32,000 bases of DNA from positions 2,490,001-2,522,000 of the forward strand of contig NZ_CP010341.1 in the NCBI RefSeq assembly GCF_000940845.1, read 5' to 3'. Position 1 is the first letter of the stretch, and each line of letters opens with the position of its first letter. This stretch comes from Propionibacterium freudenreichii subsp. freudenreichii. Lineage in GTDB: Bacteria > Actinomycetota > Actinomycetes > Propionibacteriales > Propionibacteriaceae. The notes below the pieces were generated by a model. It did not search any database. It was not told the DNA's origin and worked only from the letters and a program-made list of their open reading frames with translations. The position numbers and the translations under genes were made by a program. Shown here piece by piece: positions 7,220 through 31,579 of this stretch.

Positions 7220-7267
7220 CCCCTGCGGCAGGTTCACGTCCGGTCAGCGAGGCCAGTGCGCAGCGAA

Positions 7268-8167
7268 TCAGCGTGCAGAGAAGTAGTCGGGTCCGGCGAG
7301 GTCGTCGAGCAACCCCGGGCCAGTGGGCGTCCAGCCGAGGAGCTGCTGGGTGAGTTCGCTGGACGCCGGACGGTCGCTCATGGCATACCCGGCGAATGCC
7401 TTGAAATACCACCGTGCACGCAGCGCGGACATGCCCACCGCGGGCACACCCAGGCCACGTCCGATCGCCTGTGCGATCTGCCGGAACTCAACGCCGGTCT
7501 CTCCGACGGCGTGATAGCGAAGGCTTGCTGCCGGATGCTCGACGGCGAGCCGGAAGAGCCTGGCCGCGTCTGCCACGTACACGGCGGGAAGGCGATTCGC
7601 TCCCTGCCCGGCGTAACCCGAAACGCGTTGCCGCCTGGCGAGTTCGATCAACCGAGACATCGTGAAGTGGTCACCCGCTCCATGCACGGCCGGCATCCGC
7701 ACGACGGAGGCGCTGATGCCGCGATCGGCCAGGTCCACGATCGTGCGCTCCACATTGCGTCCCGCCGGACCGGTATGGGCTGAAGCCTCATCGGTCTCAA
7801 CGAGTACCGGACCAGTCGCGACGACGGGAGCAAAACCTCCTGCGGCCACGAGGGGTCGACGCGAGCCGCTGAGGGCATCACCCATTGCCTGCAGCGCGGC
7901 CCGCTCAATCTTGCTGTTGCGAAGGAAGCTGGCCACGGACGAGTTATCAAACGCGGCGTGGATCACCGCATCAGCGTCTGATGCACCGGCACGGATCGCG
8001 TCTAGGTCTTCGAGCGACCCGGCCTGCGGGGTCGCTCCGGCAGCCGTCAAGCGGGCCGCCGATGCCTCGGACCGTGCCAGAGCCAGCACCTCGTGCCCGG
8101 CCGCAAGCAGCTCACGCACAACCGCCGAACCGACGAAACCGGTGCCCCCGGTGACGAATACCCGCAT
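7268..8167 (-). CDS. NAD-dependent epimerase/dehydratase family protein (atypical SDR)
   Basis: MRVFVTGGTGFVGSAVVRELLAAGHEVLALARS Rossmann start at the ATG at 8167. The longer track ORF (to 8284) adds an Arg-rich, non-coding-looking extension. Confidence 0.8.
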   Translation of the reverse strand: MRVFVTGGTGFVGSAVVRELLAAGHEVLALARSEASAARLTAAGATPQAGSLEDLDAIRAGASDADAVIHAAFDNSSVASFLRNSKIERAALQAMGDALSGSRRPLVAAGGFAPVVATGPVLVETDEASAHTGPAGRNVERTIVDLADRGISASVVRMPAVHGAGDHFTMSRLIELARRQRVSGYAGQGANRLPAVYVADAARLFRLAVEHPAASLRYHAVGETGVEFRQIAQAIGRGLGVPAVGMSALRARWYFKAFAGYAMSDRPASSELTQQLLGWTPTGPGLLDDLAGPDYFSAR

Positions 8168-19687: not shown

Positions 19688-20293
19688 ATGAACAGCCCCC
19701 AGCCGGCCACGACGCGGTTCGCACTCTTCCTGCGCGGCATCAACGTGGGCGGGGTCAAGGTGCCGATGGCGCAGCTGCGCGAAGTGCTGACGCAGATGGG
19801 TGGCTCATCGGTGCGCAGCTGGCTGGCAAGCGGCAATGTGGCGTTGGACTGGCCGGGCGATGCCCCCGGCTTGCAGCGTGCCGCGGAGGCCGTGCTGGGT
19901 GAGCGCTTCGGTTACCGGGCGCGCGTGCTCGTGCGTCGTGTCGACGAGCTCGCCGCCATCATCGCGGCCTGCCCGTGGGCCCCCGACGACGGCTTCCACC
20001 GCTATGTGGTGTTGTTCGACGACGCCGACGACGCCGACGACGCCGCCCGGGCGCTGGCCGGCCTGGCCTCCCCCGGTGGTTCCGCGGGGGATCCAGGACG
20101 TGACGGGCCCGTGGTGCCCGCCGGAGCGCTCCTGGCCGGGGAGCGCGTCCAGTTGCACGGTGACCTGATCTATTGGCGCTGCCCCAAGGGCCGCACCACC
20201 GACAGTGCGTTCGGCAAGCAGCAGAACCGTGGGCCGGCGGTTCGGCGTCCAACCGTGCGCAACCTGCAGACATTGCAACGCATGGTGGGCTGA
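19688..20293 (+). CDS. DUF1697 domain protein
   Basis: N-terminus FALFLRGINVGGVKVPMAQLREVL...SGNVALD is the DUF1697 signature. Contains an in-frame (GACGACGCC)x3 insert (DDADDADDA). Confidence 0.8.
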   Translation: MNSPQPATTRFALFLRGINVGGVKVPMAQLREVLTQMGGSSVRSWLASGNVALDWPGDAPGLQRAAEAVLGERFGYRARVLVRRVDELAAIIAACPWAPDDGFHRYVVLFDDADDADDAARALAGLASPGGSAGDPGRDGPVVPAGALLAGERVQLHGDLIYWRCPKGRTTDSAFGKQQNRGPAVRRPTVRNLQTLQRMVG

Positions 20294-20335
20294 CGCGCGG
20301 CAGCGATAACCAAGTCCCCAGGGATCGCACCCGGG

Positions 20336-20404
20336 CCCTGGGTGGACACCTGTGCGGCGTCATTGCCGCACAGCTGTCCCCTTAACGGTGCCCACCTAAC
20401 AGGG
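20336..20404 (+). repeat. Hairpin repeat, copy 1 (core 20344-20379), nested in an outer inverted repeat; candidate bidirectional terminator
   Basis: GGACACCTGTGCGGC-GTCATT-GCCGCACAGCTGTCC, 14 of 15 positions paired. Outer arms CCCTG-GGTGG and CCACC-TAA-CAGGG. Lies between the convergent stops at 20293 and 20450. Confidence 0.7.
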
Positions 20405-20449
20405 AAACGGGGGCCGGCCACCCACAAGCGGCCGAACCGCGCCGCACCC

Positions 20450-22110
20450 CTAGGACTTCATCTGGCCGGTATTGGTCACCGGCGGGGCACCCAGGATCAT
20501 GTAGTGGGTCACCTGCGGGGCATCGTCGGCCAGGGCCCGCGCGGCGGTCAGCAGGTCCTCCTCATGACCGGTCCAGCGCACCGTGTGCTGCAGGATGTGC
20601 TCCTCCCAGCTGGGCACGGTGAACTCCTCGGCGAAGGAACCCTCAGCGTCGGTCTGCTCAAGCAGCTGCCACGACGCCGCACCCGTGCGCAGCCGCGCCG
20701 CCCGCACCGGCCACATGGCCTCGCGGAAGGCGTCGATGTTCTCCTTCTTCACGTGATAGGTGCTGCGCACCACCACCGGATCGCTCTTCGACTCGTCGAG
20801 CGACAGCACCGGCAGGTCGGTCGACAGGGCCACCACATTGCGGTCGAGCTTGCCCTTCACCTTGATCAGCGGCAGCAGCGGCACCGACAGCCCCGCCAGC
20901 AGCAGGAACACGCCCGCCACCACCAGCGTCCAGGCCACGCCCACGCGATCGGCGACGATGCCCCAGATGAACGAGCCGATCGCCTGTGAACCCATGAACA
21001 CCAGCAGGTACACCGACAGGCCGCGGGCGCGCACCCACTCGGGCAGCGTCAACTGCATGGCGACGTTCAGCGTGGTGAGGCTCAGGATCCAGGCGATGCC
21101 GGAGATCAGGGCGATCGGCCACATCACCTGCAGCGACACCTTGGCCACCGCCAGCGTGCCCAACCCGAACACGATCGCCGAGATGAACAGCGCGGTGGAG
21201 TTGCTCATGATCTGGCGCACCTTGTCCATGAGCAGCGCGCCGATGATGGCGCCCACGCCCAGCAGCACGAGCAGGGTCGAATAGCCGGCCGCGTTGGTGC
21301 CCATCAGGTCGTGCGCAGCGGTGGGCAGCAGGGCCCCCACAGGGCACATCCGGGGAAGGCGAACAGGACGCAGCGGATGAGGATGCGGCGGATGCCCGGC
21401 GCCGAACGCACGTAGCGCATGCCCGACAACAGCCCGGGCAGCACCTGCTCGCGCACGGCCGGCTGCTGCTGGGTGCCACGACGCCACAACACCAGCGCCA
21501 GGGCCACGGCCAGGAATGACACCGCGTTGATGCCGAAGACCATGGCCGGACCCGACGCCACCACGATGATGCCGGCGATGGCCGGCCCGATCGCGCGGGC
21601 ACCGTTCACCGTGATGCTGCCCAGCGACGACGCCTGCGGCAGCTCCTCACGGGGCACCAACTCGGGCTGGATCGCCTGCCAGGCCGGACCCATGATGGCG
21701 GCCGCGCAGCCAAGGATGAAGGTGAAGCCCAGCAGCTCCCACGGCCCCAGCCAACCGGCCGCCGTCACCACGGTCAGGGCCACGGCGATGGCCGCCGACA
21801 CCAGGCTCAGGGTCAGCAGCAGCCGCTTGCGGTTCACCAGGTCGGCCGCCACGCCCGCGAACAGGGACAGCAGCAACACCGGCAGGGTGCCGGCCGTCTG
21901 CACCCACGCCACCAGGGCGGGGCTACCCGCCTGCTCCACCAGGAACCACTGGGCACCAACGCTCTGCATCCAGCTGCCGATGTTCGACACCAGCTGGGCC
22001 ACGAAGAGCATCAGGAAAACCGGGCGTCGCAGGACGGCCAAGGAGCCACCCCCGGACGGCCGGGCCTTTTCGGTGTTCCTGCCCGACGTCTGTTTGTCGC
22101 TCACACCCAT
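20450..22110 (-). pseudogene. MFS transporter (EntS/MFS_3-like, with a ~110-aa soluble C-terminal extension) interrupted by a frameshift
   Basis: Two overlapping ORFs (22110-21304 and 21487-20450) read as one protein if the run at 21334-21338 (C5 on plus, G5 on the coding strand) is changed by +1 or -2 nt. That gives ...FAFPGCALW(G)ALLPTAAHDLMGTNAAGYS... Confidence 0.7.
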
Positions 22111-22266
22111 GAATCTACTACCGGGCCCGCGCGGAAACACCCGTATCAGCCACCAGCGTTGACGCCCCGCCGCAGCGCCCCCATTTGCCGTCCCACAAGC
22201 GCAAACGTGCACTGCTGCGAAAAGCCCCGACGCCCGCCGGGAAATCGCGCATCGACAGGCCGATCC

Positions 22267-22312
22267 CAGTTGTTGCCCAGTCGTTACCCGCACGACGCCT
22301 TGGTAACAACTG
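22267..22312. promoter_or_regulatory. Three copies of an 11-mer: CAGTTGTTGCC, CAGTCGTTACC (direct) and GGTAACAACTG (inverted); candidate operator or leader hairpin
   Basis: Read directly at 22267-22277, 22278-22288 and 22302-22312. They lie 75-120 nt upstream of the sugar ABC operon start at 22387. Confidence 0.35.
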
Positions 22313-29303: not shown

Positions 29304-29591
29304 TCAGGAATCGATGCGCATGACCTTCGTGCGCATGACCTGCTCGTCGATGCCCATGAGACGGTTCATCTCAGAGACGCTCGCGGGCTCACAGGTCAGG
29401 TCGATGACCGCGTAGAGGCCCTCGGTCTTCTTCTGGATCGGATACGCCAGGTGACGGCGGCCCCAGATGTCGACGTTGTCGACGGTGCCACCTTCCTTGG
29501 TGATGATCGCGGTGTACTTATCAACGATGGGCTGCAGCTGACGCTCATCGACATCAGGGCTGATGATTGCCATGACCTCGTACTTGCGCAT
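29304..29591 (-). CDS. rpsF: 30S ribosomal protein S6
   Basis: MRKYEVMAIISPDVDE... 95 aa from the ATG at 29591, with GAAGGAGGTGG upstream. The 151-aa track ORF is an upstream over-extension. Confidence 0.9.
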   Translation of the reverse strand: MRKYEVMAIISPDVDERQLQPIVDKYTAIITKEGGTVDNVDIWGRRHLAYPIQKKTEGLYAVIDLTCEPASVSEMNRLMGIDEQVMRTKVMRIDS

Positions 29592-29830
29592 TGCGAACTC
29601 CACCTCCTTCGGTCTCAACGGCCATGGGTCGTTCCCATGGCAGGAGGGCGTAATGCTCGGATCCGCATGCGTGACGCGGACCCGACGACACGGCTCGTAC
29701 GTGTGACGCACGGGTCGAATTACATGGCCCACGCGACGTGCGTGCGGGCCAATCCCCAAGTTTACGCGACGAGGGGGTGCAGGCGGAAACCGATGCCCGG
29801 GCGATGGGGGTTCGGGGTGGGTTGGTGGCG

Positions 29831-29994
29831 TGGGTGGCGTGGGGCGAAGGTGCGCTGGGTGGGCAACTGTGCGGCGTCATTGCCGCACAAGTGCCCAGTT
29901 AGAGACCGAAGCAGGCGCCCGCGCGCCGAGCCAGCCTGATCCGGCACTCACCGGATGGTTTCGATGCGTCTATTCACCAGAACCATCCAGTTAG
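29831..29994 (+). repeat. Composite hairpin repeat, copy 2 (core 29861-29896 plus a 98-nt tail)
   Basis: GGGCAACTGTGCGGC-GTCATT-GCCGCACAAGTGCCC, then AGTTAG...CCAGTTAG. Positions 29925-29994 are identical to 31488-31557. Confidence 0.85.
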
Positions 29995-30261
29995 TCGTTC
30001 TTCCTCGGGAGGTTATGAACGGTTGAGGTATTGGGGAAGGTCCGGCACCGTGTAGGTCAGCTGACGCACGGCGGCCGTCCTTGCGATGCGTACTCGCCCG
30101 GCGTCGACATGCCACGACCCATGGGGCGACGGCGTCCTGTTCTTCGGGACCGTCCTATGTGGGGCACTGTCCTGCGAATGATCCCCTGGATGCCAAAGTG
30201 CCGCGCCATAGTGAAGTGCCATAGTCTGGCCGGTTCACCGTCGACGCCGAGGAATGGATCC

Positions 30262-30558
30262 ATGAGCACATACCGAACCGAAGTCTTCGAGGACGGCGAA
30301 CCCTGCTGGTGGTGCGAGCGGGAGGCACTGCGGGCCGAATTGGACACCGAGGCGGGCGAGCCTGATCCCTCCGTGGTCGCCGCCCTGGCGGAGGCCGAAC
30401 ACCACCCGGACCTGGAGATGAAGGAGGTCATCGCCGAAGCCCGCAACTCCCCCGCAGATCCGGAGGACATCGCCCTGGCGGAACGCGTCTTCGGACAGGG
30501 GCCGGCTTCCGAACCCACTGGCCAGGGTGACGCTACGTCAGGGACGCCGACGGAATAG
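30262..30558 (+). CDS. Hypothetical small acidic protein (98 aa, single CWWC motif)
   Basis: ATG at 30262 preceded by GAGGAATGG. High third-position GC consistent with coding. No family recognised. Confidence 0.4.
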   Translation: MSTYRTEVFEDGEPCWWCEREALRAELDTEAGEPDPSVVAALAEAEHHPDLEMKEVIAEARNSPADPEDIALAERVFGQGPASEPTGQGDATSGTPTE

Positions 30559-30629
30559 GGAGCGGTGAGCCAGACACGTGGAGTGCAGGCGTGGGGGCGA
30601 ACGCCAGCCGTCCGGACGACCGCGCCGAA

Positions 30630-30989
30630 TCAGGCGGCGTCGCTACTGCTCCACACCAGCATGTGGAGTTCCTGCTCCAGGAAGTTGCGCACGATCCCGA
30701 TCTCTTCCGAGGTGCAACTGATGAGCACCTTGGGTTCCAGCTCCTGCTTCATCAGGTCGAGGCACAGGATCACGCCGGTCACCCGATGCTCGGGCAGCGT
30801 ACCGACGAAGACATCGAGGCCCTCACCATCAACCGACTTCAGGTCGACATATCCATAGTCGACGGGATAGACGATGCTCGGGAACCGTGGATGCCTGGAG
30901 CCCTTGGGACGGTCCAATCTCACCGGACGCGACAAGAGCTCCCGGAACAGCGGACCCTCAAATGACGTGTTGAAACCCTTATCGCCCAT
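30630..30989 (-). CDS. Small inorganic-pyrophosphatase-like protein (119 aa mini-PPase family)
   Basis: ATG at 30989 with GGGAGG upstream. The pattern DRPKGSRHPRFPSIVYPVDYGYV...DGEGLDVFVG...VTGVI matches the short DRPxGSxHP...YPxNYGY...DGxxxD PPase-like family, recalled from memory. Confidence 0.55.
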   Translation of the reverse strand: MGDKGFNTSFEGPLFRELLSRPVRLDRPKGSRHPRFPSIVYPVDYGYVDLKSVDGEGLDVFVGTLPEHRVTGVILCLDLMKQELEPKVLISCTSEEIGIVRNFLEQELHMLVWSSSDAA

Positions 30990-31163
30990 GACCGGCCTCC
31001 CGCCTTCTTGACGCATTCTCGCAGGCCACCCGACGGTGTGTTGGGACGAGGCGAACTGCTGCCCGGATTTGCTGCCGGATCATGCGCTGACCCAAAGATG
31101 GGGAGGACCTTTGCAGGGTAGACGACGCAAAAGTCCTCCCCATCTTCGTTTACGGGCCGGCCT

Positions 31164-31247
31164 GGGGCCCGAAGGTGGGATGGGTGGGCAACTGTGCGGC
31201 GTCATTGCCGCACAGTTGCCCAGTTAGAGACCGAGGCAGGCGTCCAC
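31164..31247 (+). repeat. Hairpin repeat, copy 3 (core 31186-31221, perfect 15-bp stem), truncated tail
   Basis: GGGCAACTGTGCGGC-GTCATT-GCCGCACAGTTGCCC. The arms are exact reverse complements. Flanks GGGGCCCGAAGGTG and AGTTAGAGACCGAGGCAGGCGTCCAC are shared with the other copies. Confidence 0.9.
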
Positions 31248-31271
31248 GGGTCCGAACCATGGAGAACCGAA

Positions 31272-31319
31272 GATAGGTGCGGATAAAGCACCCCAGACGG
31301 TGCTTTTGCCGCACCTATC
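31272..31319. other. 48-nt near-perfect hairpin (19 of 21 positions paired, 6-nt loop) between repeat copies 3 and 4
   Basis: GATAGGTGCGGATAAAGCACC-CCAGAC-GGTGCTTTTGCCGCACCTATC, read directly. No flanking U-tract on either strand. Confidence 0.8.
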
Positions 31320-31391
31320 CCGCGTCCACCCGCCGGCACAGCCCCGGACATGCCCTGGGTGGACACCTGTGTTGGGGAGCGGGATGGGTGA

Positions 31392-31557
31392 GTGTGTGGC
31401 GCGGGCCCGAAGGTGCCCTAAGTGGGCACCTGTGCGGCGTCATTGCCGCACAACTGCCCAGTTAGTGGCCGAAGCAAGCGTCCACCCGCCGAGCCAGCCT
31501 GATCCGGCACTCACCGGATGGTTTCGATGCGTCTATTCACCAGAACCATCCAGTTAG
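31392..31557 (+). repeat. Composite hairpin repeat, copy 4 (core 31424-31459 plus a 98-nt tail)
   Basis: GGGCACCTGTGCGGC-GTCATT-GCCGCACAACTGCCC, then a tail ending CCAGTTAG. It ends 23 nt from the hemQ stop codon. A 20-nt fragment at 31352-31371 is identical to the left arm of copy 1 (20335-20354). Confidence 0.85.
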
Positions 31558-31579
31558 TGACGGGAACGTGTCCGCAGGC

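Follow-up and report, generated by a model that had tools for sequence, protein, structure and literature searches.

The hairpins described here in Propionibacterium freudenreichii form a real, apparently undescribed family of small palindromic intergenic repeats, hereafter H, whose main demonstrable property is that the insertion sequence (IS) ISPfr5 lands almost exclusively in its centre. H is probably a REP/MITE-like family of palindromes, specific to its lineage, that expands locally through recombination between repeats and serves as a landing pad for ISPfr5. In this model, H would be the core of dispersed intergenic quasi-palindromes specific to the P. freudenreichii chromosome and at least one sister lineage. 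Its central 22 bp is the preferred ISPfr5 integration site, and ISPfr5 copies residing in different H sites recombine with each other, thereby generating strain-to-strain rearrangements around the clusters. The near-invariant core would reflect either recognition by a sequence-specific protein (on duplex or cruciform DNA, and at least by the ISPfr5 transposase) or recent common descent, and not an RNA stem kept by selection; H would reach new loci by a putative transposition-like process, and any effect on transcripts, as 3' hairpins, would be a by-product.

P. freudenreichii is used industrially for Swiss-type cheese, vitamin B12 and probiotics, and its strains differ by IS-driven rearrangements. 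The funnelling of ISPfr5 into a 22-bp palindrome explains where ISPfr5-linked rearrangements start, including beside the rpsF-ssb operon, and the preference helps in the interpretation of P. freudenreichii assemblies.

H copies in the window

In the window, i.e. the whole stretch of 32,000 nucleotides that was analysed, the exact 22-nt core TGTGCGGC-GTCATT-GCCGCACA (that is, TGTGCGGCGTCATTGCCGCACA) is matched four times, always on the + strand (starts at 20351, 29868, 31193 and 31431), against 0.00 matches expected from 100 shuffles. These matches coincide with the four same-orientation intergenic hairpins, each with a 36-nt core, that a sequence-only reading of this DNA had reported. Copy 1 (20327-20396, core 20351-20372; 66.2 bits with the covariance model R1) occupies the convergent spacer between the end of a DUF1697 gene at 20293 and that of an MFS_3 gene at about 20428, and its DNA fold reaches -16.9 kcal/mol (z = -4.3). 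Copy 2 (29844-29913, core 29868-29889) is found in a divergent spacer upstream of rpsF (about 29304-29591, - strand), while copies 3 (31169-31238, core 31193-31214) and 4 (31407-31476, core 31431-31452) lie between rpsF and a Chlor_dismutase/HemQ gene on the - strand (31580 to beyond 32000); both genes are confirmed by annotated contigs that match exactly. Folding bears out the perfect 15-bp stem attributed to copy 3, whose predicted DNA fold has 17 pairs (-23.3 kcal/mol, z = -8.3); in copy 4, arm pairing reaches CCCTAAGTGGGCA / TGCCCAGTTAGTGG (-23.1 kcal/mol, z = -7.4). Between copies 2 and 3, gene calls in strain contigs place two ORFs, of 98 aa (30262-30558, + strand) and 119 aa (30630-30989, - strand), in which a Pfam search found no known domain and which are deleted together in strain L007.

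Extent of the family

In all, 38-40 distinct intact copies, counted as 70-mers, were collected from about 25 intergenic loci of P. freudenreichii and one sister lineage; copy number and map distribution are estimates, and biased ones, the loci having been reached via pattern matches and IS neighbourhoods. The hairpins hence make up a multi-copy family, as had been proposed, and not a purely local duplication. Their general form is CCACTnAGTGG-nCAnnTG-TGCGGC-GTCATT-GCCGCA-CAnnTGn-CCACTnAGTGG, with palindrome arms that reach 21-26 nt; this length, like the role of H as a specific ISPfr5 target, had escaped the first reading. All copies are located between called genes, except three that are overrun by ORF calls. 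The flanking genes are ordinary housekeeping ones, and a Pfam analysis of 20 flanking proteins found metabolic and transport genes only, with no recombinase or RAYT.

The metagenome contigs that carry H belong to P. freudenreichii, L115 being 98.6-99.1% identical to L137 at the rib locus, and no family member was found in viral contigs, phage records or plasmid records. A search of species-representative genomes with a 20-mer of the core returned four chance matches in unrelated taxa and not P. freudenreichii itself; since this species was missed despite its many H loci, the scan is uninformative for the source species, and it is weak evidence that H is absent from other taxa. The view that the consensus belongs to no named family holds for Rfam, which gave no match over the whole window at the gathering score and, at E <= 10, only chance-level miRNA-type matches (E > 0.1) between 29600 and 31700. 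In the literature, H is not mentioned in the P. freudenreichii genome paper (PMC2909200), no description of it was found in the papers searched, and the REP survey that was consulted mentions neither Propionibacterium nor Actinobacteria.

Insertion of ISPfr5 into H

The ISPfr5 element, of the IS481 family, was followed through its junctions at L012, L131 and L141-L160, which represent 15 distinct target sites. Thirteen of them are H and two are not. Within H, the cut is always TGTG^CGGCGTCATTGCCG^CACA, with a symmetric 14-bp duplication of CGGCGTCATTGCCG; the junction is TGTG^CGGC on either strand, hence symmetric, and the element lies either way relative to the loop (7:6). Empty counterparts of filled sites are available in the window for L012 and L151, in L060 for L143 and in L053 for L148, copy 2 of the window corresponding to the empty site of both the L012 insertion (into a copy termed A) and the L151 insertion (into a copy termed B). 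H is thus a palindromic repeat in which one IS is predominantly found, always at the same place, and of which other strains show unoccupied examples. In addition, recombinant flanks surround ISPfr5 at L145-147, L150, L152, L158 and L160. Because ISPfr5 lands almost only in the centre of H, the H clusters are hot spots of genome rearrangement.

The IS3-family element ISPfr12 serves as a control for this preference. It is inserted in the companion module M2 (see below) in strains L007, L009 and L172, with the junction GGATAAA^, and at about eight other places its ends touch no repeat module. M2 was therefore rejected as a dedicated ISPfr12 target, given these insertions elsewhere. Likewise, L009 was considered as a hairpin-mediated rearrangement and set aside, its breakpoint being an ISPfr12 copy.

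Companion modules and local turnover

The mosaic of re-used modules described from the window extends to other loci, where H and three further modules, M2, M3 and M4, recur in varying order. All three are on the + strand in the window. M2 (31268-31325) is a nested hairpin, GATAGGTGCGG / AAAGCACC-CCAGAC-GGTGCTTT / CCGCACCTATC, with a DNA fold of -20.8 kcal/mol (z = -8.2) and copies at L005, L017, L031, L032, L053 and L060. M4 (31090-31150) is a long hairpin, AAGATGGGGAGGAC...GTCCTCCCCATCTT (-19.2 kcal/mol, z = -6.6), found again with 90-96% identity at L049, L053, L076/L103 and L121. M3 is a 71-nt tail ending in CCAGTTAGT, present as direct repeats at 29925-29995 and 31488-31558, the latter reaching to within 22 nt of the hemQ stop codon; the first copy can adopt alternative short hairpins, its fold is not significant (z = -1.5), and further copies are found at L032, L103/L076 and L131. 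The re-use of flanking pieces that had been noticed inside the window is likewise borne out: a 151-nt repeat (29845-29995 and 31408-31558) is 93% identical, a 79-nt repeat is present in three copies, and GCGTCCACCCGCCG occurs at both 31322 and 31478. The stray left arm of H, GCCCTGGGTGGACACCTGTG (31352-31371, + strand), is confirmed as well; it ends directly after TGTG and, compared with the A-to-B unit of L005, marks where a truncated H-T1-M2-X1 unit of 175 nt ends.

As to the arrangement of H within the clusters, the 16 neighbouring pairs are all head-to-tail, whereas BIMEs and REPINs alternate, so that the BIME-like organisation initially suggested is not supported. Neighbouring copies differ at 14.2 of 48 flank and arm positions, against 22.2 for random pairs. 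Strains moreover differ by an exact, hairpin-to-hairpin indel of 175 bp: L005, L006, L008, L013 and L014 have the unit in which copies A and B stand 175 bp from each other, and it is collapsed in the window, L010 and L011, copy 2 of the window being a hybrid of the copies A and B of other strains. Homology between L058 and L103 also breaks at an H core. These observations show local change of H clusters through recombination or slippage involving head-to-tail neighbours.

Stem variation and a possible role in RNA

An RNA-level function, whereby H copies would be U-tract-less intrinsic terminators or mRNA-stabilising 3' hairpins kept for the stem-loop of the transcript, in the manner of mycobacterial TRIT or of enterobacterial REPs within 3' UTRs, is unlikely. 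It would agree with the high stability of the hairpins (DNA folds of -17 to -23 kcal/mol, with z as low as -8), with the occurrence of several copies 47-240 nt past a stop codon in the orientation of the upstream gene, with the position of copy 1 and of the rib-locus copy between convergent genes, and with the TAA/TAG/TGA triplets often carried by the arms. Besides, about 11 of the 14 copies adjoining the 3' end of a gene share the orientation of that gene, which leaves room for a transcript-level role. However, hemQ is transcribed opposite to copies 3 and 4, the sequence of the loop and inner stem is fixed, of which a terminator has no need, and neither T-tract terminators nor any promoter or terminator consensus were found between 29500 and 31700. 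Of 14 loci, about 4 lie in convergent, 6 in tandem and 4 in divergent contexts, which looks like random intergenic placement. Found in spacers of all three kinds and devoid of T-tracts, H is not a terminator family, and the likeness to terminator repeats that had been put forward is not supported.

The variation of the stem also speaks against a selected RNA structure. The sequence-only reading had taken the replacement of GGACA/TGTCC by GGGCA/TGCCC as a compensatory swap betraying selection on the hairpin, a claim to be abandoned if a larger alignment displayed stem changes that are not compensatory. This is what the alignment of 38 copies displays: the pair concerned (columns 20/51) is unpaired in 20 of 38 copies, and the CAnnTG columns 23/48 and 24/47 are so in 29 and 19 of them, respectively. 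Altogether, 50-76% of the 38 copies lack a pair at the variable stem positions; mismatches predominate there, and pairing is rarer than in shuffles. The covariation score is 0.075 compared to 0.109 in shuffles, 500 of 500 shuffles being at least as high, and every covariation measure falls below the shuffled control (500/500). The compensatory, helix-keeping changes of a structured RNA under selection are thus not seen in H, and a two-sided change among four copies is no evidence of structural selection. About one third of the copies share a recurrent internal mismatch, in which a left CACCTG faces a right CAACTG. The statement that the loop and the inner 8 bp never vary is correct for the four window copies but does not extend to the family, in which the loop-closing pair is broken in 9 of 38 copies (a GTCATTC sub-family) and a few further variants exist.

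Orthologous copies can be compared in two cases. Between L133 and L137, the flanks are about 10% different, with no change over some 40 nt of the core and inner arms. Between L057 and L121, apparently orthologous with flanks 93% identical, the H copies differ at about eight positions, including one place in the inner stem where G-C is replaced by A-T on both sides; these differences fit neutral decay or some pairing pressure, and not a strict sequence constraint.

Recognition by a host protein or a recombinase

The possibility that H is the recognition site of a dedicated, putative Propionibacterium DNA-processing protein, in the manner of REP-RAYT or xrs-Xer pairs, is rather unlikely. ISPfr5 would then find H through that protein complex or through an extruded cruciform, which would parallel the ISAba32 group at XerCD sites. 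If true, this would add a new repeat-enzyme system in a phylum without any described, and one that comes with a naturally site-specific integrase of the IS481 family.

It is improbable that H is a selected binding site of a host DNA-binding protein (a nucleoid or origin-domain organiser, or a regulator) that ISPfr5 merely exploits. The invariance of the dyad-symmetric core amid variable flanks, together with the unchanged core of the L133/L137 orthologue despite 10% flank divergence, is compatible with such a protein, as is the location of all mapped H loci within the origin-proximal ~44% of the chromosome; this map bias is however confounded, as it was IS copies that led to most of the mapped loci. 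Moreover, tandem clusters of variable spacing, mixed with other repeat modules, are typical of selfish repeats, and no candidate protein is known.

A quite improbable reading is that H is the site of a site-specific recombinase (Xer/xrs-like or integron attC-like), the segments between direct copies being excised and reshuffled. Such an activity would account for the mosaic flanks and for the two small ORFs between copies 2 and 3. The architecture of H invites the comparison, with inverted arms of 8-15 bp, an asymmetric 6-nt centre (GTCATT) and clustered copies that are all direct, and so do the exact 175-bp indel, the break between L058 and L103 at the core and the independent assortment of left and right arms. 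In addition, elements of the ISAba32 group (IS1202 family), whose transposases are distantly related to that of ISPfr5, target XerCD sites (bioRxiv 10.1101/2022.12.17.520857). Nevertheless, H, with its arms TGTGCGGC / GCCGCACA around a 6-bp centre, is devoid of the ATAA-N6-TTAT Xer signature and of GTTRRRY attC boxes (GTTAGAG and GTTAGTG misfit), and is conserved in its centre and variable outside, the reverse of attC, so that it fits neither a Xer site (dif/xrs) nor an integron attC. The 175-bp crossover maps to the right arm of H (TGCCCAGTTAG) and not to the spacer, assuming an L006-like ancestor, no recombinase or integrase gene adjoins any H locus examined, and ISPfr5 inserts inside H, not beside it. 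The ISAba32 subgroup resembles ISPfr5 in having a dyad-symmetric target with a 6-bp centre, repeated in the replicon, but inserts 5 bp beside xrs/dif, in one orientation and with a 5-bp duplication (bioRxiv 10.1101/2022.12.17.520857), whereas ISPfr5 inserts centrally, in either orientation, duplicates 14 bp and uses a target without the Xer consensus.

Comparison with known repeat systems

The preferred reading, a REP/MITE-like family used by ISPfr5 as a landing pad, can be set against several known systems. The TRIT of mycobacteria are terminator-like repeats with a conserved GC-rich stem-loop, found 3' of genes. H shares with them a conserved, GC-rich stem-loop that recurs in the genome of an actinobacterium, but it also occupies divergent spacers and is without stem covariation, whereas TRIT are defined by their position. 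Pneumococcal BOX elements are modular boxA-boxB-boxC intergenic repeats with the order A-B(n)-C. Like H clusters, they combine short structured intergenic modules in varying ways with no identified transposase; the sequences are unrelated, however, and the order of H, M2, M3 and M4 is variable.

MITEs are defined by terminal inverted repeats matching a resident IS, which H does not possess with respect to ISPfr5, ISL3 or ISPfr12, the three elements compared. Local alignment of H with the ISPfr5 inverted repeats is no better than with shuffles (p about 0.3), and the ends of ISL3 (GGGGCTCTTCG...) and ISPfr12 (TGAAGCGCC...) are unrelated to it. H as a MITE of any of the three was rejected on these unrelated ends and on the lack of solo H arms at IS ends. 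Among the loci examined, neither a strain pair with H present and absent at one site, nor an obvious flanking direct repeat or target duplication of H, nor a mobilising enzyme was found.

That H is a classical REP system, in which a single-copy RAYT (a Y1 transposase of the IS200/IS605 type) would mobilise the repeat and maintain it through its action on single-stranded hairpins, is highly improbable. In favour of this reading, H is imperfectly palindromic, with an internal mismatch that recurs, it is extragenic and dispersed in many copies, and, like REPs (Tobes and Pareja 2006, PMC1525189), it is a hot spot for IS. Against it, the foot of its stem, C(T)nAGTGG / CCACTnAG, has no GTAG or CGTC tag (the sole CGTC being in the loop), neighbours are inverted in 0 of 16 pairs, so that there are no REPIN doublets, clusters are not biased in strand relative to the replichore (about 7:7, a rough estimate from coordinates), only the IS3, ISL3, IS30 and IS481 families, and not IS200/IS605, are listed in the genome paper (PMC2909200), and no Y1 gene was seen near any H locus examined. 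The resemblance to the REP/BIME/REPIN of Enterobacteria and Pseudomonas nonetheless covers short, GC-rich, imperfect palindromes, extragenic and dispersed, which cluster with other motifs in mosaics and are hot spots for particular IS. H differs from REPs by its longer arms (21-26 nt), its fixed 6-nt loop, its actinobacterial host and an apparent copy number of tens, not hundreds, and from BIMEs and REPINs by its head-to-tail neighbours and by the lack of a RAYT at the loci examined.

The closest parallel to ISPfr5 is offered by the REP-specific IS, namely IS1397/ISKpn1, ISPpu9, ISPpu10, ISPa11, ISPsy8 and ISRm22/19 (Tobes and Pareja 2006, PMC1525189). Like ISPfr5, these elements have their copies almost only inside one family of extragenic palindromes, thereby creating rearrangement hot spots. 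They belong to the IS3 or IS110 family, and their duplications are short or absent, whereas ISPfr5, of the IS481 family, makes symmetric cuts on the two sides of the loop, at a distance of 14 bp, with duplication of most of the inner hairpin. While REP-like families and the IS that target them have been described mainly in Proteobacteria, H, targeted by an IS481-family element with a symmetric 14-bp stagger, is an actinobacterial case that broadens this picture, and the ISPfr5/H pair is a candidate tool for site-directed integration in high-GC Gram-positive bacteria.

A Dispersed Family of Intergenic Palindromes

The hairpin repeat H is present in the window as four same-strand copies, as the sequence-only reading had proposed: the 22-nt core TGTGCGGC-GTCATT-GCCGCACA occurs exactly four times (copies 1 to 4, at 20351, 29868, 31193 and 31431), always on the + strand, against none expected by chance. 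The palindrome is larger than was first seen, with arms of 21-26 nt and up to 26 perfect pairs, the latter in locus L057, and takes the form of a left arm CCACTnAGTGG-nCAnnTG-TGCGGC, the loop GTCATT and a right arm GCCGCA-CAnnTGn-CCACTnAGTGG. Within it, no variation affects the loop, GG.CA / TG.CC or six of the eight inner pairs (the other two are nearly invariant), while the n of GGnCA (G, A or T), both n of CAnnTG and the outer TRR/YYA triplets vary; in a GTCATTC sub-family, comprising 9 of 38 copies, the loop-closing pair is broken.

Copy 1 is flanked by convergent genes. The MFS_3 transporter gene adjoining it (20428-22297, - strand) encodes a single 553-aa product in one strain and is called as two or three fragments in others (equivalents in L006-L014), and a sugar-binding protein gene is likewise split in L006; these are probably strain-specific frameshifts or pseudogenes. 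The other copies follow the order rplI-rpsR-ssb-rpsF (- strand), copy 2, two small ORFs, copies 3 and 4, and the HemQ/Chlor_dismutase gene (- strand), the window SSB protein being matched residue for residue on the P. freudenreichii chromosomes LT576034, LT618785 and CP018002, among others. The two ORFs, of 98 aa (30262-30558, + strand) and 119 aa (30630-30989, - strand), are convergent, contain no Pfam domain, are bracketed by the direct copies 2 and 3 as a possible mobile cassette, and are missing in strain L007. A G-rich run, GGGGTTCGGGGTGGGTTGGTGGCGTGGGTGGCGTGGGG (29806-29845), a possible G-quadruplex, lies directly upstream of copy 2, and there are similar stretches ahead of copies 3 and 4.

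The flanking pieces are indeed re-used, as a 151-nt unit (29845-29995 and 31408-31558), a unit of 79 nt in three copies and a left arm standing alone (31352-31371). Three further modules accompany H, namely M2 (a nested hairpin at 31268-31325, z = -8.2), M3 (29925-29995 and 31488-31558, structure not significant) and M4 (a long hairpin at 31090-31150, z = -6.6), and the description of the clusters as mosaic is right because all three recur with H at other loci in differing orders.

As had been supposed, H is a multi-copy family rather than a local duplication: 38-40 distinct intact 70-mers were counted at about 25 loci, by adding loci reached through IS copies to the members of a metagenome scan. 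This 18-mer scan yielded, among many chance matches, at least about 25 true members on contigs of 66-70% G+C. All H loci sit between ordinary housekeeping genes. At the rib operon one of these contigs, L115, matches a P. freudenreichii genome with 98.6-99.1% identity and has its H copies at the same places, so that at least this contig is a further stretch of that species' genome; other H contigs from its sample probably are too. The contig L121 (93% gene identity) comes from a sister lineage and carries one canonical and one diverged copy. The roughly 25 loci would have been seeded by some transposition-like process.

H was unmatched in Rfam, viral contigs, phage records and plasmid records, and no mention of it was found in the literature searched. 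A 20-mer scan of species-representative genomes gave chance matches only, which is weak evidence, since P. freudenreichii itself was not returned. This species carries that 20-mer at many loci, yet the collection, from which it appears to be missing or masked, gave no P. freudenreichii match; negatives from this source therefore need care. Loci with known coordinates in complete genomes (L005-L014, L133-L134, L142-L148, L153-L155 and L161-L166) are origin-proximal, at about 0-250 kb, at 585 kb or past 2.12 Mb on chromosomes of 2.6-2.7 Mb, and clusters are oriented about evenly with respect to the replichore; most were reached through IS copies, which biases ascertainment, and the figures for map distribution, strand bias and copy number per genome are rough.

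Pairing and Covariation in the Stem

As single-stranded DNA, the four window copies have fold energies between -16.9 and -23.3 kcal/mol (z between -4.3 and -8.3), and about 79-80% of the cells of a 23-bp helix pair, whether counted over 30 or 38 distinct copies. A compensatory swap had been read as a sign of structural selection. That interpretation does not hold: the pair concerned (columns 20/51) is unpaired in 20 of 38 copies, and every covariation measure for the helix falls under the shuffled control, being equalled or exceeded in 500 of 500 shuffles. Pairing is absent at the CAnnTG positions in 29/38 and 19/38 copies, and certain mismatches turn up repeatedly, left CACCTG with right CAACTG above all; such combinations look like lineages of copies and not like a conserved RNA.

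Between strains, orthologous copies were seen to differ only in the right-arm CAnnTG, at its second n: GC/GG for copy 1 (20373-20374 against L011) and AG/AC for copy A, one of two rpsF-proximal copies of other strains (29890-29891 against L005). Exceptionally, the L011 change makes the stem of copy 1 perfect. The diverged L121 copy (7241-7310) differs from its apparent ortholog in L057 (13570-13630; flanks 93% identical) at about 8 positions; among these are a G-C to A-T change on both sides of one inner-stem pair and a loop changed to GTCGCT. Both exceptions would be compatible with template-switch correction in quasi-palindromes, and they do not add up to family-wide covariation.

Besides this stem evidence, the cluster contains neither a T-tract terminator nor a sigma-70 promoter consensus, and roughly 4 loci lie between convergent genes, 6 between tandem and 4 between divergent ones, as expected from random intergenic placement. 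The suggested likeness to terminator repeats was rejected on these grounds, and it is unlikely that H, its folding notwithstanding, is an RNA terminator or stabiliser.

H as a Target of ISPfr5

In L012 (7913-9256), an insertion sequence whose transposase is named ISPfr5 (IS481 family) lies inside the rpsF-proximal hairpin, reading ...TGTG[CGGCGTCATTGCCG]-IS-[CGGCGTCATTGCCG]CACA..., at the equivalent of window 29868-29889. With junctions read at another 22 places, on complete genomes as well as contigs (including L131 and L141-L160), the centre of H accounts for 13 of 15 distinct ISPfr5 target sites. The cut positions in H are constant, the symmetric target duplication is always 14 bp there, either orientation relative to the loop occurs (7:6), and sequence variants of H are also used. 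Only two targets lie elsewhere, CGGACTTCTCCCGAC, between parA and gidB, and GTCGGGTGACAAGC; at one non-H site the duplication is 15 bp. Empty counterparts exist for three occupied sites: the window (for L012 and L151), L060 (for L143) and L053 (for L148). Since H and the inverted repeats of ISPfr5 are not significantly similar, the derivation of H from this element was rejected, and H is a target. Proteins would read the core as DNA; that H is the site of a host protein is quite unlikely.

As a control, ISPfr12 (IS3 family) touched no repeat module at about eight other places, and was found in M2 beside rpsF in L007 (7812-9160), L009 (7821-9170) and L172, equivalent to window 31268-31325. It deleted both small ORFs and two H copies in L007, and is the breakpoint of a larger rearrangement in L009. 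Kocuria, Micrococcus and Microbacterium have transposases near-identical to that of ISPfr12 (95%).

Local Gain, Loss and Rearrangement

Copies are gained and lost locally, and neighbouring ones differ less (14.2 differences per 48 nt) than random ones (22.2). Five strains carry a 175-bp unit (H-tail-M2-left arm) that is collapsed in the window, L010 and L011. Because the collapse junction, an L006-like ancestor being assumed, lies in the right arm and not in the 6-nt centre, slippage or homologous recombination fits better than a spacer-specific recombinase, and a site-specific recombination site, which could also account for breakpoints at H, is very unlikely. Several ISPfr5 copies whose flanks come from two different H sites (L145-147, L150, L152, L158 and L160) carry the footprint of IS-IS recombination. 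Moreover, L058 (1-498) and L103 (4982-5479) are 99.6% identical up to an H core and unrelated beyond, so that H there marks a rearrangement breakpoint without an IS.

Relation to Known Extragenic Palindromes

The clusters had been called BIME-like. This was rejected, as doublets in REPIN/BIME are inverted whereas neighbouring H copies are head-to-tail in 16 of 16 pairs (in 10 of them both copies are intact, in the other 6 one is interrupted by ISPfr5). A RAYT-type REP, which H resembles as a dispersed palindrome, is scarcely probable: the end tag and inverted pairing that define REPs are absent, and H is therefore filed as REP/MITE-like, not REP. Most likely, H is a lineage-specific new addition to the small intergenic palindromes, a broad class of dispersed elements, and in its behaviour it is like those proteobacterial extragenic palindromes that are hot spots for insertion sequences (Tobes and Pareja 2006, PMC1525189).
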